From a virus (lineage: Duplodnaviria; Heunggongvirae; Uroviricota; Caudoviricetes), in the IMG/VR virus record IMGVR_UViG_2703718801_000009, positions 1 through 5,184 of that record: a stretch of DNA of 5,184 bases. One strand, given 5' to 3'. The position numbers were made by a program, and so were the translations under genes. Shown in pieces: positions 2,485 through 2,874 of this stretch (position 1 is its first letter; every line of letters begins with the position of its first letter). The notes beneath the pieces are model-generated. The model did not search any database and had not been told where the DNA came from. It saw nothing but the letters and a program-made list of their open reading frames with translations.

Positions 2485-2527
2485 TTGATGGCCGACAGGG
2501 TGGCATTGTTAGAATAAGACTTATTCT
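2485..2527 (+). promoter_or_regulatory. Candidate promoter with an overlapping palindromic operator upstream of the lipoprotein gene
   Basis: -35-like TTGATG (2485-2490), about 19 bp spacer, -10-like TAGAAT (2510-2515). An inverted repeat AGAATAAG (2511-2518) / CTTATTCT (2520-2527) overlaps the -10 and the likely transcription start. Identified by eye only. Confidence 0.3.
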
Positions 2528-2541
2528 TATCTGTGCCGGGA

Positions 2542-2874
2542 ATGAAAATGAAAAGAAATCTTCCGTTAATTATTTTGTTGTCTTCTCTGGTTATGGGCTG
2601 TACGCAACATAAAACAGATATGCCCCGACAGTTGGTTAAGGCATTACCACAATATCCGGCCTATGCAGCGGCAAATTATATAAAGGGACGGGTTGATGTG
2701 AAGTTTGATATTGGTGCTGATGGTACTGTCACCCGAATTGAGTTTATCCGTTCAGAGCCGCACCATCTGTTTGATGAGCAGGTTGTAAAGGCGATGGCAA
2801 AATGGCGATTTGAGAAGGACAGGCCGCGTAAAGGCGTGAAGAAAACGTTTATCTTTAGTCCTTCTGCACCCTGA
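2542..2874 (+). CDS. Lipoprotein with a TonB C-terminal-like domain (signal peptide plus TonB_C only)
   Basis: The ORF is open from GTG 2533, with ATGs at 2542 and 2548. MKRNLPLIILLSSLVMGC looks like a lipoprotein signal peptide with a lipobox-like Cys. The mature part YPAYAAANYIKGRVDVKFDIGADGTVTRIEFIRSEPHHLFDEQVVKAMAKWRFE aligns by eye with E. coli TonB C-terminus [54 protein letters not shown] (from memory). Confidence 0.75.
   Translation: MKMKRNLPLIILLSSLVMGCTQHKTDMPRQLVKALPQYPAYAAANYIKGRVDVKFDIGADGTVTRIEFIRSEPHHLFDEQVVKAMAKWRFEKDRPRKGVKKTFIFSPSAP

Follow-up and report, generated by a model that had tools for sequence, protein, structure and literature searches.

A prophage lipoprotein built on a TonB C-terminal domain: a candidate outer-membrane decoy for TonB-dependent uptake in Escherichia coli

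Introduction

Phage T5 Llp and prophage Cor are outer-membrane lipoproteins that act on the periplasmic face of the transporter FhuA, and TonB binding occupies part of the same surface (bioRxiv 10.64898/2026.03.26.714494). PMC9841981, which cites Howard et al. 2001 (J Bacteriol 183:5885), reports that TonB's periplasmic domain, when overexpressed, inhibits iron import via E. coli TonB-dependent transporters, and also states that a TonB-box pentapeptide lowered TonB-mediated colicin killing and phi80 infection. By that account (PMC9841981 citing Howard et al. 2001), the principle of a TonB decoy has already been shown with engineered TonB fragments. Here we analyze a stretch of viral DNA of 5,184 nucleotides (Caudoviricetes; positions 1 to 5,184 of IMG/VR record IMGVR_UViG_2703718801_000009; hereafter the window) which encodes a small lipoprotein with a TonB C-terminal domain, referred to below as the TonB-lipoprotein.

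A first-pass annotation of the window, made from the sequence alone, had proposed this protein as a periplasmic decoy against TonB-dependent uptake of phages and colicins. Because the gene is already annotated and is carried by phage 21, a classical laboratory phage, the observation of such a protein is not new; the exact protein is present on at least 1000 contigs under the name 'TonB family protein'. We therefore describe what the product consists of, how it is distributed and conserved, and how well the decoy and its rivals account for it.

Results

The TonB-lipoprotein has a TonB C-terminal domain fold

Profile searches place most of the protein in the TonB C-terminal domain family. Pfam PF03544 (TonB_C) matches residues 36-103 (110-aa numbering) with an E value of 5.5e-15 and 56 bits against a cut-off of 24.6, and TIGR01352 matches with an E value of 2.6e-15 and 56.5 bits against a cut-off of 27.1. 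In a phmmer search of the PDB, the E. coli TonB chains 1u07, 1xx3 and 2gsk_B were returned at E values of ~5e-16. The best matches among solved structures are the TonB C-terminal domains of E. coli and Salmonella, which align without gaps over TonB ~153-231, and 31 of the 79 positions counted on this PDB alignment are identical to E. coli TonB (39%).

The predicted structure agrees with the profiles. An AlphaFold2 model built from five family members displays a predicted local distance difference test score (pLDDT) above 90 from about residue 31 onward, with the order strand, helix, two strands, helix, strand. The top Foldseek matches of this model are 1u07, 2gsk_B (TonB in complex with BtuB) and 2grx_C (TonB in complex with FhuA), with a root mean square deviation (RMSD) of 1.1 Å and a probability of 1.00. 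The protein ends four residues past the strand equivalent to β3, and so does without the last few residues of TonB.

Residues of the lipoprotein were mapped to TonB on the phmmer-PDB alignment, and the importance attached to them here follows the TonB literature. The P-x-Y-P motif (P161, Y163 and P164 in TonB) is kept, as are F180, G186, F202, W213 and F230, all positions studied in TonB function, and TonB Y215 is replaced by Phe.

The N-terminus is a lipoprotein signal in place of the TonB anchor and spacer

A bona fide TonB energy transducer has an inner-membrane anchor and a proline-rich spacer. Neither the TonB membrane anchor nor the proline-rich spacer that spans the periplasm is found in the sequence of the TonB-lipoprotein, whose N-terminus reads as a cleavable lipoprotein signal that ends in a lipobox. 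Full-length TonB equivalog models (NCBIfam, PRK10819) reach 50-73 bits against cut-offs of 265-448 and align only over their last ~80 positions. With neither the membrane anchor nor the proline-rich spacer, the TonB-lipoprotein cannot be energized by ExbB/ExbD.

Read from the sequence, the N-terminus (MKRNLPLIILLSSLVMG-C-T) comprises a basic n-region, a hydrophobic core and the lipobox LVMG-C, followed by Thr at position +2; at the level of the pattern, it satisfies [LVI][ASTVIM][GAS]C without Asp at +2. All 12 family members compared, the most distant at 33% identity, have the lipobox Cys, and their +2 residue is Ser, Thr or Ala, never Asp. The residue after the lipidated Cys governs sorting to the outer membrane (the +2 rule), and the Thr at this position predicts that the TonB-lipoprotein would be sorted to the outer membrane, where we infer it to be localized. 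The folded domain would be held close to the lipid: only ~10-15 residues separate Cys18 from it, without Pro-Glu or Pro-Lys repeats, and this stretch contains the PRQL strand that corresponds to TonB 153-156. Together, these features support the view that the gene product is a lipoprotein-type precursor with a TonB C-terminal domain fold only.

The open reading frame (ORF) list gives in-frame starts at 2533, 2542 and 2548 on the plus strand, with the end of the ORF at 2874. The RefSeq start for WP_000828070 is 2548, which yields 108 aa, while the ATG at 2542 would yield 110 aa. Because the ATG found at 2542 in the window reads ATA in 13 related loci, 108 aa is likelier than 110 aa, and ATG 2548 is the most likely start.

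The first-pass annotation had recognized by eye a lipoprotein-type signal followed by a TonB C-terminal domain, with the membrane anchor and proline-rich spacer missing. This description holds: the signal is the LVMG-C-T motif with its invariant Cys, the domain is recovered by the Pfam TonB_C profile, the full-length TonB models stay far below their cut-offs, and structure prediction with superposition on TonB complexes, which the annotation had suggested as a check, gave the 1.1 Å matches to 1u07, 2gsk_B and 2grx_C. Its 110-aa product differs from ours by two additional residues only, and the RefSeq call and the ATA codon in 13 loci make 108 aa the likelier length.

Distribution and conservation of the family

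Window-type DNA is found in 417 of 5426 complete E. coli genomes (~8%), always in the chromosome, and in seven phage records (Stx1a-converting phages, JLK-2012 and Lys8385Vzw). A second allele group, typified by phage 21, encodes a 108-aa product with a lipobox and 71% identity to the window type; at a coverage of at least 80% it occurs in 1219 of the 5426 genomes (~22%). Taken together, the two types reach roughly 30% of complete E. coli genomes, and Shiga-toxin strains and Nissle 1917 are among the carriers. Further carriers of the phage 21 type are ev017 and Perceval ('TonB fragment' is among its labels there), Nissle 1917 and the E. coli type strain.

More distant relatives share the architecture. 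A Klebsiella phage has a 40%-identical copy between its lysis genes and HNH/terminase, and in a Serratia prophage a relative stands directly after holin and lysozyme. An exhaustive profile search returned more lipoproteins of ~110 aa with the same architecture, at 33-45% identity. Against the viral structure library BFVD, the model of the TonB-lipoprotein had no significant match.

Selection and intactness mark the TonB-lipoprotein gene as a functional accessory gene of the prophage. The ratio of nonsynonymous to synonymous substitution rates (dN/dS) between the window and phage 21 types is 0.12-0.19, indicating purifying selection. The start motif was located in 69 of the 80 related viral loci scanned, and each of these 69 has an intact 108-aa ORF.

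Several further observations were made in the course of these searches. The phage 21-type copies P0010, P0012, P0013, P0016, P0018 and P0019 have differing C-terminal frameshifts before or within the last strand, which suggests recurrent decay in cryptic prophages. TonB-domain-only lipoproteins of ~110 aa are encoded outside prophages at L083 8001-8336, L087 8001-8336 and L089 7989-8315. Among the strongest profile matches are long proteins in which TonB_C domains are repeated three to six times in tandem (P0034, for example, is 513 aa long and has five repeats), an architecture unlike that of both TonB and the TonB-lipoprotein.

The region upstream of the gene

The gene is preceded by a leader that travels with it. 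Homology to the prophage of E. coli E2863 (L001) begins at ~2217 in the window, which is directly past Rz in L001. The leader (2217-2541) was considered as a structured RNA or a small gene and both were rejected: an Rfam search gave no match, RNA folding gave nothing unusual (z = -0.9), and no conserved ORF was found, the frames being broken by stops in phage 21 and in L130. Blocks of the leader recur upstream of the phage 21 copy. The leader also resembles decayed coding sequence, with similar peptides in one frame that is interrupted by stops in phage 21.

Close to the gene, a -10-like hexamer TAGAAT lies at 2510-2515 as part of a candidate extended -10 element (Table 1), and a weak -35-like TTGATG was picked out by eye at 2485-2490, 19 nt upstream of it. 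Window-type and phage 21-type loci share the block TTGTyAGAATAAGAC amid diverged flanks, and across ~70 window-type loci it does not vary.

The palindrome which the first-pass annotation had seen over the putative -10 was recovered by the inverted-repeat search. It is largely conserved within the window type, whereas phage 21-type loci have a deletion of the right arm. Single 8-bp palindromes occur at 7 positions in the window against 0.76 in shuffles, a general enrichment in which no one site is singled out, and we give low weight to the palindrome as a conserved operator. The iron control at which the same annotation had hinted did not survive comparison with the Fur box: the best match near the promoter agrees with the 19-bp consensus at 13 of 19 positions, shuffled sequence usually gives 12-13, and Fur/iron regulation via the palindrome was rejected as resting on a chance-level match.

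On the minus strand, inside the coding sequence at 2675-2702, there is a near-consensus sigma-70-like sequence (TTCACA-16-TATAAT, 11/12), oriented antisense toward the 5' end of the gene. Such sites are no more numerous in the region than shuffled sequence would lead one to expect.

Genomic setting

The window is the late region of a lambda-like E. coli prophage (Table 1). The TonB-lipoprotein gene stands between Rz/Rz1 and HNH/terminase, with which the packaging genes begin, and a gap of ~430 bp separates it from the PHROG 875 gene. In the HNH and small terminase region, PHROG 589 and 641 were matched. The E. coli E2863 prophage has the order holin, lysozyme, antirepressor, Rz, 'TonB family protein', YlcI/YnfO, HNH, terminase and head/tail genes. 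The Pfam and PHROG neighbors thus agree with the first-pass annotation, which had located the gene at an accessory-gene site between the lysis and packaging genes.

Table 1 Features of the window.
Feature	Position	Strand	Basis or remark
Antirepressor	40-609	+	gene order
Small membrane ORF	between antirepressor and Rz/Rz1	+	gene order
Rz/Rz1 spanins, end of lysis cassette	752-1155	+	Pfam Phage_lysis and Rz1; alignment with L001
KilA-N/ORF11CD3 gene	1358-1855	+	library matches
PHROG 875 gene	1852-2109	+	PHROG match, no assigned function
Non-coding leader, ~325 bp, moves with the gene as a module	2217-2541	+	L001 homology from ~2217
Candidate extended -10, TGtTAGAAT (TGTTAGAAT)	2507-2515	+	by eye
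Perfect 8+8 palindrome, AGAATAAG a CTTATTCT (AGAATAAGaCTTATTCT)	2511-2527	.	inverted-repeat search; overlaps -10-like hexamer
TonB-domain lipoprotein ORF	2548-2874	+	108 aa; ORF list, RefSeq WP_000828070 'TonB family protein'
Lipoprotein signal peptide and lipobox, MKRNLPLIILLSSLVMG-C	2548-2601	+	read from sequence; Cys codon 2599-2601
Flexible tether, Cys to folded domain	2602-2646	+	low to intermediate AlphaFold2 pLDDT at residues ~18-30
TonB C-terminal domain (α1-β1-β2-α2-β3)	2647-2859	+	Pfam, PDB alignment, Foldseek
DUF3950 YlcI/YnfO gene	3006-3266	-	Pfam, L001 annotation
HNH endonuclease	3248-3613	+	Pfam HNH, PHROG, L001 annotation
Small terminase subunit	3903-4466	+	Pfam Terminase_2, PHROG, L001 annotation

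Some neighboring genes deserve comment in their own right. Rz is split in the window: there is a 61-bp deletion relative to the intact Rz of L001, and the ORF with the N-terminal membrane segment (752-913) is out of frame with ORF 832-1155. Rz1, which is embedded in Rz (917-1102), is intact. Judged from this sequence, a prophage with the split Rz may be impaired in lysis. Relative to L001, the KilA-N and PHROG 875 genes are an insertion between Rz and the TonB-lipoprotein module; the KilA-N protein has a weak match (E 1e-8) to the PADLOC candidate defence family PDC-S22. The YlcI/YnfO gene converges on the TonB-lipoprotein gene, and its longest ORF overlaps the start of HNH by 19 bp. The L001 prophage also has a J-type tail tip and Lom.

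PHROG 1267, the family to which the TonB-lipoprotein belongs, carries the label 'Rz-like spanin' in the lysis category. We rejected an identity as o-spanin or Rz-like spanin: a separate Rz/Rz1 pair is present in the window, as it is in phage 21, the domain is a globular TonB domain, and there is no C-terminal hydrophobic segment. Because Rz/Rz1 are present separately, the label looks like an annotation error that arose from the position beside the lysis genes.

Discussion

A TonB mimic at the outer membrane

We put at about 0.5 the probability that the TonB-lipoprotein is a decoy, an outer-membrane-tethered and energy-uncoupled TonB mimic which blocks the contact between TonB and its transporters. 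Such a protein would act as a dominant-negative form of TonB. In 2gsk and 2grx it is β3 with which the TonB box pairs, and the β3 edge of the lipoprotein would pair likewise with TonB boxes exposed by FhuA, FepA, Cir and BtuB, and with those of incoming group B colicins. With these boxes occupied, host TonB would be unable to pull on the transporters or colicins. Entry of phages of the T1/phi80 type, colicins, microcins and albomycin by TonB-dependent routes would be reduced, and the cell would pay with some loss of siderophore and B12 uptake; it is this TonB-box binding and the exclusion phenotype that we infer rather than observe. Anchoring by lipid would enrich the domain in the plane at which TonB boxes become exposed. 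Its N-terminal end appears to lie near the TonB-box site (around TonB 160), which would make a short membrane tether geometrically reasonable.

As to when the protein might be made, the gene lies in the late operon downstream of Rz, in the same orientation and ahead of terminase, so that, judging from lambda, one expects it to be transcribed in the lytic phase, presumably under Q antitermination. The conserved extended -10 may allow expression from the resting prophage as well.

Several points weigh against the decoy. Some concern the contact itself. TonB Q160 is Leu in the lipoprotein and variable across the family, and R166 is Tyr and mostly aromatic across the family; Q160 is the site of the classical suppressors of TonB-box mutations, with Q160L itself one of them, and R166 contacts FhuA Glu56 in 2grx. 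TonB-box binding through main-chain strand pairing is nonetheless plausible on the model, though the side-chain contacts differ. Dosage is a further difficulty: transporters greatly outnumber TonB in the cell, so coverage of TonB boxes may need high expression. The promoter scan found no full sigma-70 promoter on the plus strand, where the candidate extended -10 is at consensus level only, and the terminator scan found no terminator in the region of the gene. As for the traits of a moron, presence/absence and module boundaries were seen, the extended -10-like element was found by eye only, and the scans gave neither a full promoter nor a terminator. The regulated promoter of its own which the first-pass annotation had suggested thus keeps the conserved extended -10-like element and loses support from the scan and from the phage 21 type, where the palindrome is without its right arm.

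The distribution raises doubts of another kind. The gene is in only 15 of 50,697 phage records. A chromosomal relative in Klebsiella/Raoultella adjoins lacZ-lacI, and another in Serratia grimesii is flanked by ycgN and dsbB-nhaB-fadR. Phage defence is therefore not necessarily the ancestral role, and the ancestral function may have been modulation of TonB-dependent transport instead. PADLOC did not match the TonB-lipoprotein to a known defence system, and full-text literature searches, together with the phage 21 genome paper and a paper on TonB/TolA evolution, returned no study on the function of a TonB-domain protein from a phage or prophage. Of the decoy as originally proposed, what stands is a lipoprotein with a TonB domain only, without coupling parts, at an accessory-gene site; iron control has fallen away, the gene has turned out to be already annotated and common, and relatives exist outside prophages.

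Alternative roles

The same domain could interfere with TonB by another route, in which mixed dimers with the C-terminal domain of host TonB trap scarce TonB at the outer membrane instead of covering TonB boxes. A shared fold at ~39% identity to E. coli TonB 153-231 would suit such pairing, as would the fact that TonB C-terminal fragments crystallize as dimers (1u07 and 1ihr are among the structure matches). TonB is the limiting component, and trapping it therefore needs far less protein; mixed dimers were reportedly offered by Howard and colleagues in 2001 as an alternative explanation for inhibition by fragments. We still think trapping unlikely, since the lipoprotein is without the terminal TonB residues through which strands are exchanged in some dimer structures, and the relevance of TonB C-terminal dimers in vivo is disputed. 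That one or the other holds, decoy or trapping variant, we consider reasonably probable.

A role in the envelope that has nothing to do with TonB boxes would see the protein as a tether of the outer membrane to peptidoglycan or outer-membrane proteins, in a Bor-like conversion (serum or stress resistance, for example), or as a modulator of lysis. Binding of murein and contacts with Lpp and OmpA have been reported for the C-terminus of TonB, the gene always follows the lysis cassette directly (in phage 21, where bor adjoins it, in the Klebsiella phage and in the Serratia prophage), its PHROG family bears the spanin label, and the chromosomal relatives outside prophages suggest a housekeeping function in the envelope. 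Position alone says little, however, because the lysis-to-cos region hosts accessory genes generally, bor in phage 21 among them. A lysis function is further disfavored by the separate Rz/Rz1 pair in the window and in related phages, and by a folded TonB domain where one would look for the short proline-rich form of an o-spanin or the C-terminal membrane segment of a unimolecular spanin. We regard an envelope or lysis role as improbable, and as less likely than a TonB mimic. That the gene is merely a dead remnant, a piece of host tonB picked up by a phage, is very hard to credit. Database wording such as 'Partial tonB-like membrane protein' and 'TonB fragment' invites the idea, and several phage 21-type copies in E. 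coli have C-terminal frameshifts. Yet the protein has acquired a signal peptide and lipobox of its own, conserved down to 33% identity, dN/dS is 0.12-0.19 with 69 of 69 window-type copies found intact, and identity to E. coli TonB is only ~39%, so that capture was not recent.

Significance

If the TonB mimic is real, it would be a natural form of exclusion at the TonB coupling step, which is common to all TonB-dependent transporters, where Cor and Llp each disable one receptor. The broadest version of the proposal is that a lipid-anchored mimic of the TonB tip in lambda-like prophages, by occupying the TonB box or by trapping TonB, dampens the entry of all TonB-dependent phages, group B colicins, microcins and sideromycins; we hold this tentatively, at somewhat less than even odds. 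The same caution applies to its reading as superinfection exclusion combined with bacteriocin tolerance, aimed at the energy-coupling step and not at one receptor.

Were it so, the exclusion lipoprotein would be one whose fold differs and comes from the transducer of the host itself, and it could potentially act on all TonB-dependent transporters and colicins. It could influence which phages and bacteriocins work on gut E. coli, the trade-off that lysogens make between iron uptake and protection, and how effective siderophore-conjugated antibiotics and TonB-dependent therapeutic phages are. For those who study TonB, it would be a natural, evolved inhibitor of the interaction between TonB and its transporters.

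Comparison with known systems

The TonB of Enterobacterales (residues ~150-239; 1u07, 1xx3, 2gsk, 2grx) has the homologous domain, at ~39% identity and 1.1 Å, with the YP motif and the aromatic core in common. The TonB-lipoprotein departs from it in being a lipoprotein without anchor or spacer, in its predicted lipid anchoring to the opposite, outer membrane, and in ending just after β3. The engineered TonB fragments of Howard, Herrmann, Stratilo and Braun (2001), as summarized in PMC9841981, are likewise a periplasmic domain uncoupled from the inner membrane, and are the direct functional precedent for a decoy. Those fragments were laboratory constructs, soluble in the periplasm, overexpressed and identical to host TonB, whereas the lipoprotein is natural, diverged, predicted to be lipid-anchored and carried by phages.

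Among phage genes, the nearest are CPT_21_73 of phage 21, annotated as 'TonB C-terminal domain protein', and the 'partial tonB-like membrane protein' of CP-933N, which match in identity (71%), length (108 aa), lipobox and position between lysis and cos/terminase. CPT_21_73 belongs to the other allele group, adjoins bor and a lambda-type Nu1 terminase, and lacks conservation of the palindrome. Bor/Iss of lambda-like phages is also an outer-membrane lipoprotein encoded by an accessory gene at the same genome position, and adjoins the TonB-domain gene in phage 21; it has no relation in sequence or fold, and Bor is linked to serum resistance, not to TonB.

Llp of T5 and Cor of phi80, N15 and HK022-type prophages are, like the TonB-lipoprotein, small phage lipoproteins, located at the inner leaflet of the outer membrane, and block infection at the periplasmic face of FhuA. 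Searches of Pfam and PHROG with the TonB-lipoprotein gave only TonB_C, PHROG 1267 and 34172, and no Cor or Llp family match. The folds are unrelated, and the modes of action would differ accordingly in reach: Llp and Cor are specific to FhuA and act allosterically, whereas a TonB mimic would recognize the shared TonB box, and with it many transporters as well as colicins.

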